Assembly: GCA_044432975.1 (NCBI GenBank)
Contig: JAWXUC010000004.1
Coordinates: forward strand, 30,291 to 94,290
Length of the DNA stretch: 64,000 nucleotides
Origin: Alphaproteobacteria bacterium
GTDB lineage: Bacteria > Pseudomonadota > Alphaproteobacteria > RF32 > CAG-239
Direction: 5' to 3'
Both the position numbers and the translations under genes were made by a program. Shown piece by piece: positions 14,530 through 56,661 of the stretch. Position 1 is the first letter of the stretch. Every line of letters begins with the position of its first letter. The notes beneath the pieces are model-generated. The model searched no databases. It had not been told where the DNA came from and saw only the letters and a program-made list of their open reading frames with translations.

Positions 14530-14551
14530 GTAGGGGCGATTATTAATCGCC
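14530..14551 (+). repeat. REP element (GTAGGG head)
   Basis: GTAGGGGCGAT-TATTA-ATCGCC. Confidence 0.7.
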
Positions 14552-14592
14552 ATCATTGCCGTAAGGCAATGAAAATAAGGATGTTTGTTGTC

Positions 14593-14615
14593 GGGAGACC
14601 ATTGGTCTCCCCTAC
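14593..14615 (-). repeat. REP element in inverted orientation
   Basis: GGGAGACC-ATTG-GTCTCCCCTAC (reverse complement begins GTAGGGGAGACC). Confidence 0.7.
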
Positions 14616-14651
14616 TTTTTTCAGTGCAAAAAACAATCAATTAATGCTATA

Positions 14652-14811
14652 TAGACCATTTTACGAAAAGATAGAATCCCTTTGCTCGTCTTTTGCTTTT
14701 TGTTCTTTATTTTTATTTATAAACTGTAGTCCACTACACTTCATAAATAAAAATAAATTCAAAAAACAAAATCCTTCACAGGCATATTCTATCTTTTCGT
14801 AAAATGGTCTA
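14652..14811. mobile_element. 160-bp palindromic MITE (copy A)
   Basis: Perfect 26-bp terminal inverted repeats TAGACCATTTTACGAAAAGATAGAAT (14652-14677 / 14786-14811). The internal core TTTGCTCGTCTTTT...AAAATCCTTCACA is shared with 33261-33424 and 58124-58287. Confidence 0.8.
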
Positions 14812-14831
14812 GCTGAATGATTATATTTTTA

Positions 14832-14859
14832 TTGCAATTTGTTTTAATTGATTTATATT
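14832..14859 (+). promoter_or_regulatory. Sigma-70-type promoter of structured RNA copy 1
   Basis: TTGCAA (14832-14837), 16-nt spacer, TATATT (14854-14859). Equivalent boxes lie at the same distance in the other two copies. Confidence 0.55.
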
Positions 14860-14866
14860 TGTTTTT

Positions 14867-15038
14867 AGTCGGGATGGCTCGGCGGAAATTATTGTGTATG
14901 GTGTCTGAAAAACACTTACATGGAACTTCACTGTTAAAGGTGGAGTGTTCGGATAGGGCTATATGCTTAAGAAGAACGGCTGCCATGTACAGTTTTTCAG
15001 CTCCACCACTGATTTTTATAATTCAGTGGTTTTGTTTT
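14867..15038 (+). ncRNA. Unclassified structured RNA / leader, copy 1 of 3
   Basis: Paralogue of 28792-28957(-) and 56151-56322(-). Helices P0, P1, P1b, P2 and P3 are kept by compensatory changes. Carries the invariant CAGTTTTTCAGCTCCACCACT and ends in CCACTGA..TCAGTGG + TTTTGTTTT. Confidence 0.75.
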
Positions 15039-15063
15039 AACTATAACAAAATGGAGTGAAAAA

Positions 15064-15282
15064 ATGAATTTTAATAAAACTATGAAAGAGCTTGGAAAGC
15101 AGGTTTTTGACTTAAGACAAGAGCAGGGGTTAAGCTTGCAAAAGTTATCAGGAATTTCTGGAATAAAGAAGAAAAAGTTAGAAAAACTAGAGTTGGGTTT
15201 GACTGAAATAGATATAGGTACAATTAAAAAAATAGCAAAATTTTATGGTGAAGATGCTAAAATAATTTTAGATAATCAATAG
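15064..15282 (+). CDS. Small Xre/Cro-type helix-turn-helix protein (72 aa)
   Basis: GGAG RBS; LSLQKLSGISGIKKKKLEKLELG HTH pattern; paralogue at 28545-28772. Confidence 0.75.
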   Translation: MNFNKTMKELGKQVFDLRQEQGLSLQKLSGISGIKKKKLEKLELGLTEIDIGTIKKIAKFYGEDAKIILDNQ

Positions 15283-15298: not shown

Positions 15299-15336
15299 AT
15301 ATTCTAGATTTCTAGAATTCTAGAAATCTAGAATAT
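15299..15336. repeat. Perfect 38-bp palindrome rich in CTAG
   Basis: ATATTCTAGATTTCTAGAA|TTCTAGAAATCTAGAATAT; a further half-site GAAATCTAGAATATA lies at 15341-15355. Confidence 0.9.
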
Positions 15337-15460
15337 GTGTGAAATCTAGAATATAAGTTGATTGAGTGTTTTTTTACCCCCTTTTGTTACTGGCGTGACA
15401 TTTTCCCCGCAAGGGGCAAATGATATAGCAAACGCAAAATTATTTGATTGCATATCTCTT

Positions 15461-15532
15461 GTAGGGAACAGTCTTGACTGTTCCTTGTATAATATGGCTA
15501 ATTTCAAAGGAATGGTCAAGACCATTCCCTAC
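15461..15532. repeat. REPIN (two inverted GTAGGG-head REPs)
   Basis: GTAGGGAACAGTCTTGACTGTTCC (15461-15484) and GGAATGGTCAAGACCATTCCCTAC (15509-15532). Confidence 0.8.
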
Positions 15533-15664
15533 AAATTATTATAAAACACAATCATTTATTTTTGCCTTAGCTATAGTAGAAATACTTTTTTATTTTTAAT
15601 AAAATTTTTTGTTGCCTAATCTGATTTTTGTTGTATTTTAGTACTAATTTATAAGGAGCTTTTT

Positions 15665-16475: not shown

Positions 16476-18884
16476 ATGGAGAATAAAATGGTAGAGATTG
16501 ATGATAGATATAATCATAAGGCGATAGAGCAAAAGTGGCAAAAATATTTTGAAGATAACAAAACTTTTAAGGTGGAGTTAGATACATCTAAACCTAAATA
16601 TTATTGTTTGGTGGAGTTTCCGTTCCCATCTGGGGCTGGGTTGCACGTGGGGCATCCTCGTTCTTATACTGCACTTGATGTTATTGCTCGTAAAAAACGT
16701 ATGCAAGGTTTTAATGTGCTTTACCCAATGGGTTTTGATAGTTTTGGTTTGCCTGCAGAAAATTATGCAATTAAGACTGGTACTCACCCTGCAATTTCTA
16801 CAAAAGCAAATATTGAGAACTATAAACGTCAATTAAAAATGCTTGGTTTTTCTTTTGACTGGGACAGATGTGTTTCTACTTGTGACCCTGAATATTATGT
16901 GTGGACACAAAAAATGTTCTTGAAATTTTTAGAAAAAGGTTTGGCATATAAAAAGAAACAATCTATTAACTGGTGTACTTCTTGCAAAACTGGTTTGGCA
17001 AATGAAGAAATTGTTGGCGGAAAATGTGAACGTTGTGGCGGCGATGTTGTGCAAAAAGAAAAAACACAATGGATGTTGGCTATCACAAAATATGCAGACA
17101 GACTTATTGACGATTTAGAAACAGTAAACTTTTTAGACAGAGTAAAATCTGGTCAAACAAACTGGATTGGCAGATCTGAAGGTGCTGAATTAGATTTCAA
17201 ATTTGGCGATAATAAATTGACTGTGTTTACAACTCGTCCTGATACTGCGTTTGGTGTTACATATATGGTTCTTGCTCCAGAGCATCCTTTTGTTAAAGAA
17301 ATGAATTTTGAGAATCGCGGGGAAATTGATGCTTATGTTGAAGCTACAAGACACAAAACAGATTTAGAGCGTTCTATGGACACTAGCAAGACTGGTGTTG
17401 AATTAAAAGGTATTAAGGCAATAAATCCTTTTAATGGTGCAGAGATTCCAGTATTTATTTCTGATTATGTATTAATGGGTTATGGTACTGGTGCAATTAT
17501 GGCTGTACCTGCTCATGATCAACGCGACTGGGATTTTGCTAAAGCATTTAATTTGCCAATTATTCCTGTTTTGGCTGGTGGCGATATTGAAGAAAAAGCT
17601 CATGAAGAAGAGGGCGAACATATCAACTCTGATTTCTTAAATGGAATGATGAAAGAGGAAGCTATGACTAAGGCAACTGAGTTTGCAAAGGCTAACGGAT
17701 TTGGTCATACAAAAATAAATTACAAATTACGTGATTGGGTATTTTCTCGTCAACGTTATTGGGGAGAGCCTATTCCTGTGGTTCATTGTGATGATTGCGG
17801 AATCGTGCCATTACCAGAAGGTCAATTACCATTAAATCTTCCTGAAGTTACAGATTATTTGCCAAATGATGAAGGTGAATCTCCACTTTCTAAAGCAACA
17901 GACTGGGTAAATACTGTTTGTCCTAAATGTGGAAAACCAGCAAAACGCGAAACAGACACAATGCCAGGTTGGGCAGGGTCTTCTTGGTATTTCTTGCGTT
18001 ATATTGATCCACACAACAAAGATACATTTGCTTCTAAAGAAGCTCAAGATTATTGGATGAATGTTGACTTGTATAATGGCGGAATGGAACACGTTACACT
18101 TCACTTGTTGTACTCTCGTTTTTGGCATAAATTCTTGTATGATTGCGGAATGGTTACAACATCAGAGCCATATCAACGCCGTGTTGCTCATGGAATGATT
18201 TTGGGTGAAGATGGCGAAAAAATGTCTAAATCTCGTGGTAATGTTATTAACCCAGATGAAATTGTTGATACTTATGGTGCAGACGCATTCCGTTTGTATG
18301 AAATGTTTATTGGTCCGTTTGATCAAGTTGCTCCATGGTCTGATGAAAGTTTAAACGGTGTGTTCCGCTTTATTGCTAAAATTTGGGCAATGCACAGCAA
18401 GGTTGCAGATATTGAGCCAAGCAAAGATGATTTACACCAAATGCACAAAACAATTTTAGATGTTGTTGATAGAATAGATTTAATGAAATTTAACACAGCC
18501 GTTTCTAGCTTGATGACATTTGTTAATTATTTGGGTGGATTAAAAGAAGTTCCAAAAGTTTGTTTTGAAACTTTGGTTAAAATGCTTTCTCCATTTGCTC
18601 CACACGTAAGTGAAGAATTATGGCAAAAATTGGGACACACAGGTCTTGTTTGTCAAGCAGAGTTCCCTGTTGGAGATAAATCTTTAGCAACATCTGATAG
18701 CGTTACAATCGCTGTTCAAATCTGTGGCAAAATGCGTGGCACTGTTGAAGCTCCTGTTGATGCAGATGAAGAAACTGTTAAAGCATTAGCATTTGCATTA
18801 GATAACGTTAAAGCACAGACGGAAGGCAAAGAGATTAGGCGAATTATTTATGTTAAGAATAAAATTCTTAATGTGATAGTTTAA
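16476..18884 (+). CDS. leuS: Leucyl-tRNA synthetase
   Basis: HVGHPRSYT (HIGH) and KMSKSRGN (KMSKS) motifs and the CP1 editing region. Confidence 0.97.
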   Translation: MENKMVEIDDRYNHKAIEQKWQKYFEDNKTFKVELDTSKPKYYCLVEFPFPSGAGLHVGHPRSYTALDVIARKKRMQGFNVLYPMGFDSFGLPAENYAIKTGTHPAISTKANIENYKRQLKMLGFSFDWDRCVSTCDPEYYVWTQKMFLKFLEKGLAYKKKQSINWCTSCKTGLANEEIVGGKCERCGGDVVQKEKTQWMLAITKYADRLIDDLETVNFLDRVKSGQTNWIGRSEGAELDFKFGDNKLTVFTTRPDTAFGVTYMVLAPEHPFVKEMNFENRGEIDAYVEATRHKTDLERSMDTSKTGVELKGIKAINPFNGAEIPVFISDYVLMGYGTGAIMAVPAHDQRDWDFAKAFNLPIIPVLAGGDIEEKAHEEEGEHINSDFLNGMMKEEAMTKATEFAKANGFGHTKINYKLRDWVFSRQRYWGEPIPVVHCDDCGIVPLPEGQLPLNLPEVTDYLPNDEGESPLSKATDWVNTVCPKCGKPAKRETDTMPGWAGSSWYFLRYIDPHNKDTFASKEAQDYWMNVDLYNGGMEHVTLHLLYSRFWHKFLYDCGMVTTSEPYQRRVAHGMILGEDGEKMSKSRGNVINPDEIVDTYGADAFRLYEMFIGPFDQVAPWSDESLNGVFRFIAKIWAMHSKVADIEPSKDDLHQMHKTILDVVDRIDLMKFNTAVSSLMTFVNYLGGLKEVPKVCFETLVKMLSPFAPHVSEELWQKLGHTGLVCQAEFPVGDKSLATSDSVTIAVQICGKMRGTVEAPVDADEETVKALAFALDNVKAQTEGKEIRRIIYVKNKILNVIV

Positions 18885-19378
18885 TGGAAAGAAAATTAAA
18901 TAGGTTACAAAATTTTGACTATGCAACAAGCGTGGGGTATTTTATTACGATTTGTACGCAAGATAAAAAATGTTTGTTGAGTCAAATTGTAGGGACAGGG
19001 CTCTGCTCTGTCCAACATTTGCCAATAGGTAAATGTTTAGAAACTGAAATGCAAAATTTAGAAAATAAATATAATTTGAAGTTTGAAAAATATGTTATAA
19101 TGCCAAATCATATTCATATGATTGTAAGGCTTTGTAAAAGCCTTAGGACAGAGCAGAGCCCTGTCCCTACAATTTCTGATATAATTTGTGAGCTAAAATC
19201 TAAAGTAACAAAGCTTGCAAATAAAGAAGAGGGCATTGTTGGTAGAAAAATTTTTCAACGTTCTTTTTATGATAGAATAATACGTGATGATGAGTATCAG
19301 CCAATTGCTCAATATATCTTAGAAAATCCATATAATTGGCAAAAAGATGAATATTATAAAGGAGAAAAAAATGCTTGA
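18884..19378 (+). CDS. REP-associated tyrosine transposase (RAYT, IS200-like Y1 HUH family)
   Basis: FITICT.., HUH motif PNHIHMIV, C-terminal FQRSFYDRIIR..ENP. The start overlaps the leuS stop (TAATG). Confidence 0.85.
   Translation: MERKLNRLQNFDYATSVGYFITICTQDKKCLLSQIVGTGLCSVQHLPIGKCLETEMQNLENKYNLKFEKYVIMPNHIHMIVRLCKSLRTEQSPVPTISDIICELKSKVTKLANKEEGIVGRKIFQRSFYDRIIRDDEYQPIAQYILENPYNWQKDEYYKGEKNA
18986..19013 (+). repeat. REP arm embedded in the RAYT coding sequence
   Basis: ATTGTAGGGACAGGGCTCTGCTCTGTCC; its perfect reverse complement lies at 19146-19173. Confidence 0.9.
19146..19173 (-). repeat. Inverted REP arm embedded in the RAYT coding sequence
   Basis: GGACAGAGCAGAGCCCTGTCCCTACAAT, a 28/28 complement of 18986-19013. 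Confidence 0.9.
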
Positions 19379-28498: not shown

Positions 28499-28538
28499 AA
28501 TTACGCATTACGTAGAACGTTCTACGTAATGCGTAATT
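28499..28538. repeat. Perfect 40-bp palindrome
   Basis: AATTACGCATTACGTAGAAC|GTTCTACGTAATGCGTAATT, 6 nt downstream of the Xre ORF stop. Confidence 0.9.
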
Positions 28539-28544
28539 TTTTAA

Positions 28545-28772
28545 TTAAATCTCTTTAGATTTAAGGATAATAGATATATCTTGATTATAATACTTTGCTA
28601 AGATTTTAATCATTCTAATATCTAAAACACCTTTGCCAAGTTCTGTTTTTTCTAATAAATCTTTATTGATTTTTACTTCTTTTGCAACAGTTGCTAATCT
28701 TTTAGATTTTTCTTGCCTGAGTTTGAAAATTTGCAAGCCAAATTCTTTTTTTATGTTTTTTATTTTCGTCAT
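28545..28772 (-). CDS. Small Xre/Cro-type helix-turn-helix protein (75 aa)
   Basis: Paralogue of 15064-15282 (KEFGLQIFKLRQE..LEKTELG..ILAKYY); the same GGAGTGAAAAAATG start context. Confidence 0.75.
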   Translation of the reverse strand: MTKIKNIKKEFGLQIFKLRQEKSKRLATVAKEVKINKDLLEKTELGKGVLDIRMIKILAKYYNQDISIILKSKEI

Positions 28773-28791
28773 TTTTTCACTCCAATTTGTT

Positions 28792-28957
28792 AAAACAAAA
28801 CCACCTGATTTATATCAAGTGGTGGAGCTGAAAAACTGCCAAGACAGCTATCCTTATTTGGCATAGCCTTATTCGGACGCTCCACCTAGTGGTGAGCGTT
28901 TCTTGGTAGTGTTTTTCAAGCACCATACATAATAATATCAGCCAAGCAATCTTGACT
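28792..28957 (-). ncRNA. Unclassified structured RNA / leader, copy 2 of 3
   Basis: Same block order and helices as copy 1. Terminator CCACTTGAT..ATCAGGTGG + TTTTGTTTT on the minus strand. Confidence 0.75.
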
Positions 28958-28964
28958 GATATTT

Positions 28965-28993
28965 AATATATAAGAATCTTTTTTATTTGTAAA
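28965..28993 (-). promoter_or_regulatory. Sigma-70-type promoter of structured RNA copy 2
   Basis: Minus strand TTTACA (28993-28988), 17-nt spacer, TATATT (28970-28965). Starts 5 nt after the rph stop. Confidence 0.55.
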
Positions 28994-28998
28994 TGTTT

Positions 28999-29715
28999 TT
29001 ATAAATTTAATGCTTCTTTTTGTTTTTCAATTAATTGCATTATGCCGTTTTTAGCTAGTTCGTATAAAATATCGTATTCTTTTTTGCTAAAGGTTTTGCC
29101 TTCGGCGGTGCCTTGGACTTCTACTAAGCCTTCTGATTGCGTCATTACAAAGTTTATGTCTACATCTGCATGACAATCTTCGGCATAATCAACATCAACC
29201 ACACAAGCTTGGTTTGAAATTGCGCAAGAAATTGCTGCTACAAATTCTTTTATTGGGTTTTCTTTTAATTGACCTTCTGCGATTAATTTTTGCACTGCCA
29301 AATAAAGAGCAACAAAACCACCTGTTATAGATGCGGTGCGTGTTCCGCCATCGGCTTGGATTACGTCGCAGTCTATTGTGGCGCTAAAGCCATTGAATTT
29401 TTCTAAATCAACAACGGCACGCAAAGAGCGTCCGATTAATCTTTGAATTTCTTGAGAGCGACCAGAAATACCCTTAACATCTCTTTTAACTCTAGTAGTG
29501 CAAGAGCGAGGGAGCATTGAATATTCTGCAGTTACCCAACCTTTGTTTTGACCTTTTAGCCAAGATGGAACTTTATCTTCAATGCTTGCGGTACATATAA
29601 CGTGAGTGTTGCCAAACTTGATTAAGCAAGAACCTTCCGCATATGCATTAAAGTTAGGGATAATGGATATATCCCTAACTTCATTGTTTTGTCTTTTTGA
29701 CGGACGGTTGGTCAT
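28999..29715 (-). CDS. rph: Ribonuclease PH
   Basis: RPSKRQNNEVR..., GGTRTASITG motif. Confidence 0.95.
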   Translation of the reverse strand: MTNRPSKRQNNEVRDISIIPNFNAYAEGSCLIKFGNTHVICTASIEDKVPSWLKGQNKGWVTAEYSMLPRSCTTRVKRDVKGISGRSQEIQRLIGRSLRAVVDLEKFNGFSATIDCDVIQADGGTRTASITGGFVALYLAVQKLIAEGQLKENPIKEFVAAISCAISNQACVVDVDYAEDCHADVDINFVMTQSEGLVEVQGTAEGKTFSKKEYDILYELAKNGIMQLIEKQKEALNL

Positions 29716-34819: not shown

Positions 34820-34849
34820 ATCTTTACTTTTTAATATTTTACCCTTAAA

Positions 34850-35049
34850 CTTGTTGTTGGATAGGTTGATTACCTATCTGAGGTGTCGAAACCTCTTTAA
34901 GCACGTCTTGAAAGACGTTAAATTTTACATACTTTCTAGTCTATGACTGGAAGGTGGTAAAATAAAGCCCTTGCGGTTGAATATACCGCACTATTTTGCT
35001 TAAATAGTTTCGAACTTCCAGTCGCCCCTCATCATGGCGATATTTTTTT
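34850..35049 (+). ncRNA. Candidate structured RNA or 5' leader upstream of the OMP gene
   Basis: Hairpins at 34860-34878, 34880-34895 and 34903-34918. A 9-bp long-range stem GACTGGAAG/CTTCCAGTC (34945-34953 / 35015-35023) encloses two hairpins. GC hairpin TCGCC..GGCGA + T-run ends at 35049, 25 nt before the ATG. Confidence 0.4.
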
Positions 35050-35073
35050 AATTAAAAAAAGGAAACTTAAACT

Positions 35074-35619
35074 ATGAAAAAAACTTTATTACTTGCAGGC
35101 GTTGCTTGCGTTTTATCTTTTAACTCTAATGCTTCTGAAATCAAACCTTATGTTGGTTTAGATGTCGGAGTGGTTAGTGCAGATTTAGCTAATGGCTATG
35201 ATTTAATTGCAGAAGATAGTTTATATACATATTCAGTTAATGCAGGTGCAAAAATTAATGATAATTTTGGTTTAGAGGCTTTTTATCAAACTTCTTCTGA
35301 AGAAGATAAAACAATTGGCGCACTGACAACAACCACAAGTTTTGATGCTTATGGCCTAGACGTTATTGGATATTTACCAATAACAGAAAAAACAAATTTA
35401 TTAGGTTCTGTTGGTTTAGCTCAATATGACTTTGAGTTAAAAGCAACAGGGCTTGCAACAGAAAGCGAAGATGGCTTAGGTTGTCGTTTTGCTGTTGGTG
35501 CTGATTATAACTTAACAGATAATGTTTCTTTTAGAGCAATGGCTCGTTATGTTACTTTAGATACTGATAATGTTGATAGTCTAACAGAATTTTCTGTTGG
35601 TGCTAGATATTCTTTCTAG
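35074..35619 (+). CDS. Small outer-membrane beta-barrel protein (OmpA-like barrel/porin family)
   Basis: Signal peptide, alternating beta-strand pattern, C-terminal ...GARYSF. Confidence 0.8.
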   Translation: MKKTLLLAGVACVLSFNSNASEIKPYVGLDVGVVSADLANGYDLIAEDSLYTYSVNAGAKINDNFGLEAFYQTSSEEDKTIGALTTTTSFDAYGLDVIGYLPITEKTNLLGSVGLAQYDFELKATGLATESEDGLGCRFAVGADYNLTDNVSFRAMARYVTLDTDNVDSLTEFSVGARYSF

Positions 35620-55866: not shown

Positions 55867-56127
55867 TTATTTTTTGTTAATGATGTTATAAAATTTGTTT
55901 AAGCAATTATAAATATCTTTTGCGGTTAAATATATGGTGTATCCTATTATGTTTAGAGATAATTTGTCGTCTTTTGTTTCTGTTAAAGGTTCTTTAAAAA
56001 ATTCTTCAAGCTCTATTATTGCCTTTTGCTTTCTTTGGGATGTTGTTAATAGTTCTTTTTTTTCATCATTATAAGAGTGATATAGATAAATTAAGTTTTC
56101 CATTAATCTTTTTTCTTCTTTGCTCAT
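55867..56127 (-). CDS. Small hypothetical protein (86 aa) downstream of RNA copy 3
   Basis: ORF starts 24 nt after the RNA terminator T-run. Not similar to the Xre proteins of copies 1 and 2. Confidence 0.5.
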   Translation of the reverse strand: MSKEEKRLMENLIYLYHSYNDEKKELLTTSQRKQKAIIELEEFFKEPLTETKDDKLSLNIIGYTIYLTAKDIYNCLNKFYNIINKK

Positions 56128-56150
56128 TTTTCAATTCCTTTTTTTATAGT

Positions 56151-56322
56151 AAAAAAAATCACCACCACTAAAAAAGTGGTGGAGCTGAAAAACTGCCGCA
56201 TGTCAGCCACTCTAATTCGAGCATAGCCTTATATCGAGCACTCCACCGAAGTGGGTGACTCATACGGATAAAACGTTTTTCAGGCGTTATACATAATAAT
56301 ATTAGCCAAGCCTATCTTGACT
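56151..56322 (-). ncRNA. Unclassified structured RNA / leader, copy 3 of 3
   Basis: Same blocks and helices as copies 1 and 2. P2 is capped by a TTCG loop. Terminator CCACCACT-TTTTT-AGTGGTGG then TGATTTTTTTT on the minus strand. Confidence 0.75.
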
Positions 56323-56330
56323 ATGCTTTT

Positions 56331-56481: not shown

Positions 56482-56661
56482 TGTGAGGTTCGTATTTTTA
56501 CGGACTGTTTGTTAAAAACAATGAATTGCAATTAAAATTTTGTTTTTGTAGAGCGGGGGCTTGCTCCCGCCGTTGCGCAGTGCCTCACGGCGGGAGCAAG
56601 CCCCCGCCCTACAGTAAATAGCCCAAAAAAGCACTTATTTTTTTCTTATACGAATCTCGCG
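56482..56661. mobile_element. Inverted-repeat element (TGTGAGGTTCGTAT ... ATACGAATCTCGCG) carrying a nested REPIN
   Basis: The ends are complementary and related to the 316-379 element. The interior contains REPIN 56548-56612. Confidence 0.55.
56548..56612. repeat. REPIN (two inverted GTAG-head REPs, 25-nt arms)
   Basis: GTAGAGCGGGGGCTTGCTCCCGCCG - 15 nt - CGGCGGGAGCAAGCCCCCGCCCTAC. Confidence 0.85.

Follow-up and report, generated by a model that had tools for sequence, protein, structure and literature searches.

A multicopy structured leader RNA, found mostly upstream of small Xre-type genes, in uncultured gut Alphaproteobacteria

The interval between rph and lptE in a 64,000-nucleotide (nt) stretch of an Alphaproteobacteria bacterium genome (GenBank assembly GCA_044432975.1, contig JAWXUC010000004.1, positions 30,291 to 94,290; the whole stretch is hereafter called the window) carries a structured RNA followed on the same strand by an open reading frame (ORF) for a small Xre-type protein. 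This RNA is a multicopy leader family. Copy 2, at the rph-lptE junction, is joined by three others in the window (copies 1, 3, and 4) and by ~100 further copies in metagenome-assembled genomes (MAGs) of gut Alphaproteobacteria and in metagenomes. A sequence-only reading had presented the locus as an RNA-plus-Xre module at rph-lptE; its layout holds, but the RNA is specific neither to Xre genes nor to this position. The element is probably a cis-acting leader, OFF by default, that controls both transcription termination and translation of the gene behind it, a reading to which we assign a probability of roughly 0.55.

Copy 2 is encoded on the minus strand. At position 28999 the rph ORF ends, and 5 nt on a sigma70-like promoter begins (28965 to 28993, TTTACA-17-TATATT, 10 of 12 matches in a promoter scan). 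In ~55 other copies a −10 box (TACAAT) and a −35 box (TTGCAT) are kept at equal distance just upstream of the first hairpin, P0, and hence the RNA most likely begins at P0, a 13-bp hairpin that forms the 5′ end of the copy 2 RNA (28934 to 28963). Between P0 and the terminator hairpin lies a conserved core of ~110 nt. As placed by the RNAalifold consensus, the core includes segment e (GGUG) and the 5′ strand of helix P1 (UUGAAAAAC; together 28911 to 28924), the bases of which could alternatively form a small local hairpin, GGUG[..]CAC. The 5′ strand of P2 follows (CCAAGA, 28901 to 28906, partner 28839 to 28844), and then segment a (CGCUCACC, 28891 to 28899), which with segment b (GGUGGAGC, 28879 to 28886) makes up hairpin P3; b is Shine-Dalgarno-like and has either a or a third segment, c, as its partner. 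The P4-P5 arm (28846 to 28881), in which P4 and P5 both covary, carries a conserved internal loop, GAAUAA / AAAUAA(G), beside a small hairpin, GGC-UAU-GCC. After it come the 3′ strands of P2 and P1 (GUUUUUCAG) and segment c (CUCCACC), together at 28821 to 28844, where three window copies have a 22-nt block in identical form; the P1 3′ strand plus c constitute the proposed segment complementary to the ribosome-binding site (anti-RBS).

The leader ends in an intrinsic terminator with a 10-bp stem followed by UUUGUUUU (28792 to 28823), the 5′ arm of which overlaps the last bases of c. Its hairpin (ACCACTTGAT/ATCAGGTGGT, 28823 to 28800) has 10 pairs, contains G+C, and runs into the tail TTTGTTTT, i.e., a G+C-rich hairpin with a U-tract directly after it, as in Rho-independent terminators. 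The ribosome-binding site (RBS) and spacer (GGAGUGAAAAA, 28773 to 28783), complementary to UUUUUCA-G-CUCC in the leader, immediately precede the 75-aa Xre-fold ORF (28545 to 28772). Promoter, structured RNA, terminator, GGAG start context, and ORF were thus all located where the sequence-only reading had put them, and the architecture is, as it had also stated, that of copy 1, which lies on the plus strand (14854 to 15282).

By predicted folding, the copy 2 RNA is far more stable than shuffled sequence (z = −7.8). We derived an RNAalifold consensus with 47 consensus pairs from 56 distinct copies; a larger alignment comprised 96 sequences. The consensus helices are P0 (usually with a GAGA loop), P1 (GG.G.CUGAAAAAC with GUUUUUCAG.C.CC), P2, P3 (a:b, CCAC with GUGG), P4, P5 (the P4-P5 internal loop being GAUAUAAG / CGAAUAAG), and the terminator; covariation backs eight helices. 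Across the 56 copies, 96.2% of the cells were paired, compared to 85.8% in shuffles and 38 to 47% when the partners were slid, and cells with changes on both sides numbered 277 versus 81 ± 7 in shuffles. Compensatory changes occur in P0, P2, P4, P5, and the terminator; both partners vary in 6 of the 8 pairs of P0 and all 5 of P2. P0 contains many G-U pairs (U-G at one position in 31/56 copies, G-U at another in 41/56), which argues for selection on RNA rather than on a DNA palindrome. P1 is nearly invariant within the main family and compensated in L117 (CUCAAAAAC/GUUUUUGAG; L-numbers are labels of the compared loci) as well as in the diverged subtypes (GUCGAAAC/GUUUCGAAC, UUAGAAAACC/GGUUUUCUAA, and CUGAAAAC/GUUUUCAG).

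Copies 1 and 2 are 76% identical in their RNAs (165 aligned positions) and 95% in spacer and RBS, compared to 54.5% in ORF DNA and 40% in protein, in agreement with the earlier by-eye estimate of 40 to 45% for the two Xre proteins and of a better-kept RNA. A 21-nt block, CAGTTTTTCAGCTCCACCACT, is identical at three sites in the window (copies 1 to 3; chance expectation, 0), and the start context TTGGAGTGAAAAAATG is confined in the window to copy 2 and, in a form with a single mismatch, copy 1 (0.32 expected by chance). Together with the covariation in 56 to 96 homologues, these data support the view that the structured RNA is real and at least as constrained as the protein.

Segment b (GGUGGAG) is complementary to both a (UCCAC) and c (CUCCACC), and in the metagenome set the three change jointly (UCCAC/GGUGGAG/CUCCACC, UCCUC/GGAGGAG/CUCCUCC, and UCCC/GGGGAG/CUCCCC). 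Over the 96 sequences, b:c is 98.9% paired (columns 119-209: UA 67, AU 15, GU 4, GC 2) and a:b 97.8% (columns 105-119: AU 67, UA 15, CG 10); the underlying sequences were collected with a metagenome pattern that put no constraint on a, b, or c. One b nucleotide therefore covaries with two partners, which marks a:b and b:c as mutually exclusive helices, as expected of a switch. In three diverged subtypes, the sequences of a, b, and c are wholly different, yet their complementarity is kept. These subtypes are represented by copy 4 of the window (34846 to 35055; a CUUUCUAGUC, b GACUGGAAGG, c CUUCCAGUC), by L037 and L030 (a not resolved, b CGGAUG, c CAUCCG), and by L141 (a CUUCC, b GGUCGGAAGG, c CUUCCGACC). 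The 3′ end of c is in turn part of the terminator 5′ arm.

The RBS and spacer downstream (GGAGUGAAAAA within the window, GGAGUUGAAA in the majority of copies) are complementary to the anti-RBS segment, UUUUUCAGCUCC, which spans the P1 3′ strand and c. The predicted duplex with the copy's own RBS averages −13.4 kcal/mol, compared to −5.3 ± 2.1 for shuffled RBS windows and −7.8 ± 2.9 for a control of 383 other gene starts with a Shine-Dalgarno motif, only 5% of which reach the median of the modules. Moreover, the RBS changes together with c across subtypes (GGAG-CUCC; GGAUGUUA-UAACAUCC in L037; GGAAG-CUUCC in L141). With its RBS sequestered, copy 2 has a predicted fold of −62.5 kcal/mol, close to the minimum-energy fold (−62.8 kcal/mol), and the b:c fold is 9.4 kcal/mol worse, so the default state looks to be OFF. 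The gap from U-tract to Shine-Dalgarno sequence is only ~10 to 20 nt, and the promoter scan between terminator and start codon found none; there is therefore no room for a separate promoter. In many main-type loci, two additional conserved hairpins, AAGCUGGUGGCAGCUU and AAACACGGCGUGUUU, sit between terminator and RBS in modules with a long spacer of ~110 nt (e.g., L009 1495-1568 and L013 2966-3040); a second control element is one possible role for them, an internal promoter region another.

RNA and gene are closely linked. An automated search of the genome loci and the window found a small Xre-like ORF after 49 of ~57 RNA copies, and several of the remaining copies show a similar ORF at a contig end or with another start context. 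Nearly all of these ORFs align as one Xre-like family of 72 to 119 aa, for which a profile search of 5.8 billion proteins returned only 70 relatives, all of ~80 aa, unnamed, and from such MAGs. Conversely, all 13 loci picked by protein alone, from four starting proteins, carry the RNA directly upstream. The copy 2 protein scores below threshold against HTH_3 (PF01381; 15.2 bits, cut-off 23) and HTH_31 (21.1 bits, cut-off 27). Its AlphaFold2 model (predicted local distance difference test score, 89.9) has four helices, and every one of its best PDB matches is a small Xre-family protein (template modeling [TM] scores, 0.67 to 0.79). The model thus supports an Xre-type helix-turn-helix (HTH) fold for copy 2, and copy 1 passes the Pfam HTH_3 threshold, so that the earlier Xre assignment stands at the level of family and fold. 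Small Xre regulators such as the restriction-modification controller proteins C.BclI and C.AhdI, the HipB antitoxins, and pSK41 Cop match in fold and size (TM, 0.7 to 0.79), whereas their identity to the copy 2 protein is only 10 to 23% and the partner toxin, restriction-modification system, or replicon of those systems is absent here. Cop of pSK41 works alongside a regulatory RNA.

The leader is also found in front of other genes. Diverged copies precede outer-membrane beta-barrel genes (35074 to 35619 in the window, and in L030 and L037), and main-type copies also occur before genes for secreted proteins, among them a type IVb pilin-like one, a distribution that fits a general cis-regulatory device. 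In L030 and L037, the outer-membrane-protein subtype sits directly after an Xre-type module.

Among known RNAs, the nearest relative is sRNA-Xcc1 (Rfam RF02221), an 88-nt small RNA (sRNA) of Xanthomonas campestris found in 2010, documented by Northern blotting and rapid amplification of cDNA ends and still of unknown function (PMC2996969). It has been reported upstream of symE in Xanthomonas integron cassettes (10.1101/2025.06.18.660453) and of an ORF6N gene in an APSE phage (10.1101/2020.03.17.996009), and its homologues form roughly 380-nt tandem arrays in a Xylella genomic island (PMC12189769). At gathering thresholds, Rfam identified only tRNA-His in the whole window; none of the main-type copies was detected with Rfam 15, and a search of copy 2 at E values up to 10 gave nothing relevant. 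Against RF02221 (gathering score, 53 bits), there was likewise no match to copy 2 at E values up to 10 or to the main-type copy of L037, while two diverged copies from different species scored below threshold, namely, copy 4 (32.3 bits, E = 5e-4) and the outer-membrane-protein type of L037 (31.3 bits, E = 2.5e-3). Both alignments agree in equating the Xcc1 closing stem with b:c and its first hairpin with P4-P5.

The 3′ two-thirds of the RNA can indeed take the Xcc1 fold, with b:c as closing helix around a hairpin that has an A/U-rich loop with GAAUAAG, this being one of two alternative folds. A U-rich joining strand is also common to both (UUUCAG here, UUUGAG in Xcc1), as are a small same-strand gene directly downstream and multiple, sometimes tandem, copies. 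The main type differs in a ~70-nt 5′ extension (P0, e, the 5′ strands of P1 and P2, and a) that competes with the Xcc1 fold, in its separate intrinsic terminator, and in the downstream gene, an Xre regulator rather than symE, ORF6N, or KilA-N. The settings differ too, i.e., integron cassettes, prophages, and genomic islands for Xcc1 versus housekeeping surroundings in gut Alphaproteobacteria.

Genuine Xcc1 elements of Neisseria gonorrhoeae (69 bits) and Aeromonas caviae (72 bits), which have the GAAUAAG loop in common with the present family, precede antirepressor-like genes encoding KilA-N (L137 1485-1823) and ORF6N (L138 1378-1612), respectively. The Aeromonas Xcc1 belongs to a longer leader. 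The same small hairpin opens this leader, and a P1 5′ strand, GUCGAAAC, pairs in it with GUUUCGAAC just before c. In Neisseria, a second, promoter-proximal leader between Xcc1 and the KilA-N gene matches our covariance model weakly (15.5 bits) and has an 11-bp perfect anti-RBS pairing with an upstream segment. What Rfam models as Xcc1 may thus be just the core of longer leaders. On these sequence comparisons, we conclude that the family is a distant, 5′-extended relative of sRNA-Xcc1; by the Rfam criterion it is not a member.

In the mechanism that we propose, a ~170-nt leader and the small Xre gene would be cotranscribed from the promoter of the leader, and control would be exerted at two levels. 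In the default OFF state, P0, P1, P2, the a:b hairpin, and the P4-P5 arm would form, c would be free for the terminator, and most transcripts would stop as the ~170-nt RNA. In those that read through, UUUUUCAGCUCC would pair with the RBS GGAGUGAAAAA and block translation. In the ON state, b would leave a and pair with c, giving the fold that Rfam models as sRNA-Xcc1; this would weaken the base of the terminator and free the RBS. The stabilizer of b:c could be a small ligand, a protein at the GAAUAAG loop, or another RNA. Read-through would presumably be the source of the Xre mRNA, and the folding energies suggest the direction of the switch.

Several points weigh against this proposal. We infer termination, read-through, and the 5′ end of the RNA alike. 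The a/b/c covariation in the main family rests largely on one alignment column, and the copies are paralogues, so that covariation counts are not independent events; the complementarity to the RBS is likewise in part inherited by paralogy and in part due to A-rich spacers. The overlap of terminator and c is only 2 to 3 nt, and therefore b:c alone may not abolish termination. Forcing b:c in a nested-structure model of copy 2 costs ~9.4 kcal/mol relative to the minimum-energy fold, so the ON state needs a stabilizer or a pseudoknot geometry. Finally, the detection of Xanthomonas Xcc1 as a discrete sRNA (PMC2996969) fits a trans-acting product equally well.

A trans role of the terminated RNA is, accordingly, the main rival. 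The element could be a stand-alone trans-acting sRNA like c4 of phage P1, IsrK, or a type I antitoxin, with the terminated 170-nt RNA or a processed ~90-nt b-to-c core as the product, and it would repress its own and paralogous Xre mRNAs through their shared RBS, resulting in cross-immunity or mutual exclusion. A promoter of its own and a strong terminator are both present, and the paralogues within a genome have anti-RBS and RBS in common, the outer-membrane-protein subtype there using an orthogonal pair. Its relative Xcc1 is a detected 88-nt sRNA (PMC2996969) found upstream of symE, ORF6N, and KilA-N genes in the c4/IsrK position (10.1101/2025.06.18.660453), and the tandem module arrays in L107 and L117 resemble those of the Xcc1 homologues in Xylella (PMC12189769). 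However, the anti-RBS segment is part of helix P1 instead of being exposed in a loop, a matching RBS context is found at no other gene of the window, and an Xre gene with no separate promoter needs read-through, which makes a cis component unavoidable. We regard a stand-alone trans-acting sRNA as rather unlikely; a trans role is compatible with the cis leader and not exclusive of it.

The c4 antisense RNA, like IsrK an immunity RNA, is encoded upstream of its target, is complementary to the ribosome-binding region of that target, and is preceded by a target look-alike. Similarly, the RNA described here lies upstream and on the same strand, is complementary to the downstream ribosome-binding region, as are c4 of phages P1/P7 and IsrK of Salmonella, and has in e plus the P1 5′ strand a sequence that resembles the RBS. 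It differs in that no prophage or antirepressor is nearby and the complementary segment lies inside a helix instead of in loops. The Rfam C4 and isrK models gave no match other than a sub-threshold isrK score of 18.6 bits for one outer-membrane-protein-type copy.

A metabolite or ion riboswitch, in which the three-way junction with the GAUAUAAG / CGAAUAAG loop might act as an aptamer that chooses between a:b plus terminator and b:c, seems improbable. The highly conserved, covariation-backed core, the expression platform of mutually exclusive helices, and the occurrence of several copies per genome before different genes, as with cyclic di-GMP riboswitches, would all suit it, but the genes controlled (Xre, outer-membrane proteins, type IVb pilin, and unknown secreted proteins, plus symE and antirepressor-like genes in the relatives) have no metabolic theme, and no known riboswitch class was matched. 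The chain a:b, b:c, c:d, which ends in an intrinsic terminator, recalls attenuators such as the trp leader (1:2, 2:3, 3:4), with the anti-Shine-Dalgarno element as a second layer of control. Unlike attenuators and riboswitch platforms, the family has no family-wide leader peptide and no known ligand or protein partner, and compared to attenuators its antiterminator b:c would be long-range and pseudoknotted relative to P1 and P2. A leader peptide was considered and rejected as the family mechanism. A 4-codon mini-ORF, (A/G)UG UAU NNN NNN UGA, occurs in three window copies (28921 to 28932, 14893 to 14907, and ~56284 to 56298) and is absent from other lineages and genera; it sits in a lineage-specific 13-nt insertion, its stop is a UGA inside the P1 5′ strand, and a ribosome on it would keep P1 from forming.

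Less probable still is the view of the element as a selfish mobile module, or as a toxin-antitoxin-like addiction module, that spreads between genes and whose RNA and protein serve only to maintain it. The modules are multicopy and scattered, among the proteins closest in structure are HipB antitoxins and Cop, which controls plasmid copy number, and the related sRNA-Xcc1 is linked to the symE toxin gene. Their position varies between genera, and rph-lptE is a variable hot spot.

The sequence-only reading had placed leuS as the usual neighbour of lptE-holA and deduced an insertion or rearrangement; the comparison bears this out, in that relatives with 54% LptE identity (L141 to L144) keep leuS-lptE-holA contiguous, and the rph-lptE junction is therefore derived. 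At L140 (61% LptE identity), rph is followed by a HigA-like HTH gene without the RNA, an opposite-strand gene, and lptE-holA-adk; at L050, from another genus, the module is upstream of rph; contigs encoding an identical Rph protein all carry it. Two other accounts of the junction were discarded. The interval is not a leuS remnant, since leuS is intact at 16476 to 18884 and the interval is a defined multicopy element, and an inversion between copies 1 and 2 was dropped by reasoning only, as the resulting order would not restore leuS-lptE. The 570-nt leuS-lptE gap of L143 had no RNA match; REP-like (repetitive extragenic palindromic) repeats lie inside it.

Other observations disfavor a selfish module. 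The modules come with no partner toxin gene, transposase, or integrase, no terminal repeats delimit a mobile unit, and the fold of the protein is that of an ordinary DNA-binding Xre protein. Related MAGs retain the modules at orthologous positions, e.g., downstream of lepA in nine loci. The neighbors are diverse housekeeping genes (rph, lptE, lepA, accC, pgk, and similar), among which no integrase or transposase recurs, so that the comparison of neighboring genes ruled out conserved mobile-element neighbors. Conservation at the DNA level, with the palindromes as Xre operators and the remainder as a repeated promoter region that lacks any function as RNA, is hardly tenable: P0 lies at the promoter and could double as an operator, and small Xre proteins usually self-regulate, but covariation is seen in P1 and P2, the strands of which lie ~100 nt from each other, P0 is rich in G-U pairs, and the opposite strand scores far lower in the covariance model.

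The copies outside the window came from two pattern searches. The first pattern (GGTGGAG-N30-60-TTTTCAGCTCCACC), scanned against one genome per species, yielded 79 loci, ~55 of them true copies and almost all from uncultured gut Alphaproteobacteria MAGs (e.g., "Proteobacteria bacterium CAG:495," MGYG-HGUT-04400, and many BRZ_ bins), with at least 4 to 7 copies in single MAGs. The second, run on metagenomes, had P1 and the AAUAAG loop as its fixed points and allowed any sequence in a, b, and c; it yielded 52 loci, ~50 of them true and mostly from human or animal gut. Two matches in viral contigs were dropped, as they lack the upstream CUGAAAAAC that marks true copies and look like chance. The conserved 15-mer was not found in the 200 of 408 supplementary files of a human-microbiome structured-RNA catalogue (PMC8040213) that were searched, and a full-text literature search for Xre-associated RNA motifs returned nothing specific. 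Modules may also be arrayed in tandem, two or three at 514-nt spacing (L107 10109-11321 and L117 2509-3208). A truncated relative at L070 1115-1294 (70 bits), which lacks the P1 5′ strand and a and has GGGGAG/CUCCCC as b:c, has no ORF directly after it and is located ~600 nt upstream of a complete module, with GCATGACAG-type repeats in between.

The family, with ~100 distinct members and strong covariation in poorly studied, uncultured gut Alphaproteobacteria, is new to Rfam 15. It offers a testable mechanism for sRNA-Xcc1, i.e., a:b plus terminator versus b:c, with an anti-RBS, and would bring the Xcc1-type RNAs found before symE, ORF6N, and KilA-N genes under one logic with it. A shared RNA element over paralogous transcription factors and outer-membrane and pilin genes would define an RNA regulon or a mutual-repression network in a human-gut commensal. 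More speculatively, and with the odds against it, the family and sRNA-Xcc1 might represent one widespread, hitherto unrecognized four-partner class of riboregulators, in which an anti-Shine-Dalgarno segment, c, is passed among e, b, the terminator arm, and the RBS, and which in gut Alphaproteobacteria wires 5 to 10 Xre paralogues and surface proteins into one regulon. If so, the regulon would answer a single signal, or reciprocal repression in trans would leave one paralogue expressed at a time, and the same logic would explain Xcc1-type control of symE toxins and phage antirepressors. On the practical side, the RNA repeat breaks metagenome assemblies. Contigs often end inside it.

As for the other copies in the window, the copy 1 RNA (14854 to 15044, plus strand; covariance-model score, 93.4 bits) is followed by a 72-aa Xre ORF (15064 to 15282, plus strand; Pfam HTH_3, 33.1 bits, E = 5.6e-8). 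Copy 3 lies between plsY and ruvB (56144 to 56325, minus strand; 91.6 bits) and precedes an 86-aa ORF (55867 to 56127, minus strand) with no Pfam match; a diverged Xre protein was ruled out (hhalign probability, 0.08). The exact protein of this ORF is on record on nine contigs. Copy 4, the diverged subtype on the plus strand, scores 29.9 bits (E = 6.6e-6) and has a folding z of −7.0; its P1 (GUCGAAAC/GUUUCGAAC) and segments a, b, and c differ in sequence with the pairing compensated. The gene behind it encodes a 181-aa outer-membrane beta-barrel protein (plus strand; Pfam OMP_b-brl, E = 1.3e-21).

Repeats of several kinds surround the modules. A perfect 40-bp palindrome (AATTACGCATTACGTAGAAC / GTTCTACGTAATGCGTAATT, 28499 to 28538) between the stop codon of the copy 2 Xre gene and lptE could be a two-way terminator or a REP-like element; the assemblies with an identical Rph protein break ~36 nt past the copy 2 ORF. 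In L140, palindromes of a similar kind (TATACGCAAGACGTCTTGCGTATA) stand on either side of the unrelated HTH gene that occupies the corresponding site. Directly before the copy 1 promoter is an inverted repeat with ~26-bp arms (TAGACCATTTTACGAAAAGATAGAAT ... ATTCTATCTTTTCGTAAAATGGTCTA, 14640 to 14812) that resembles a miniature inverted-repeat transposable element, and a run of TCTAGAA-type palindromes follows the copy 1 ORF (15300 to 15350). Further sites (14530 to 14615, 15455 to 15535, 56575 to 56650, and 18884 to 19378) are taken up by REP-like GTAGGG...CCCTAC hairpins, scattered through intergenic regions near the modules, and by an IS200-like Y1 transposase gene (Pfam Y1_Tnp, E = 1.4e-7) next to leuS, possibly of the REP-associated tyrosine transposase type.

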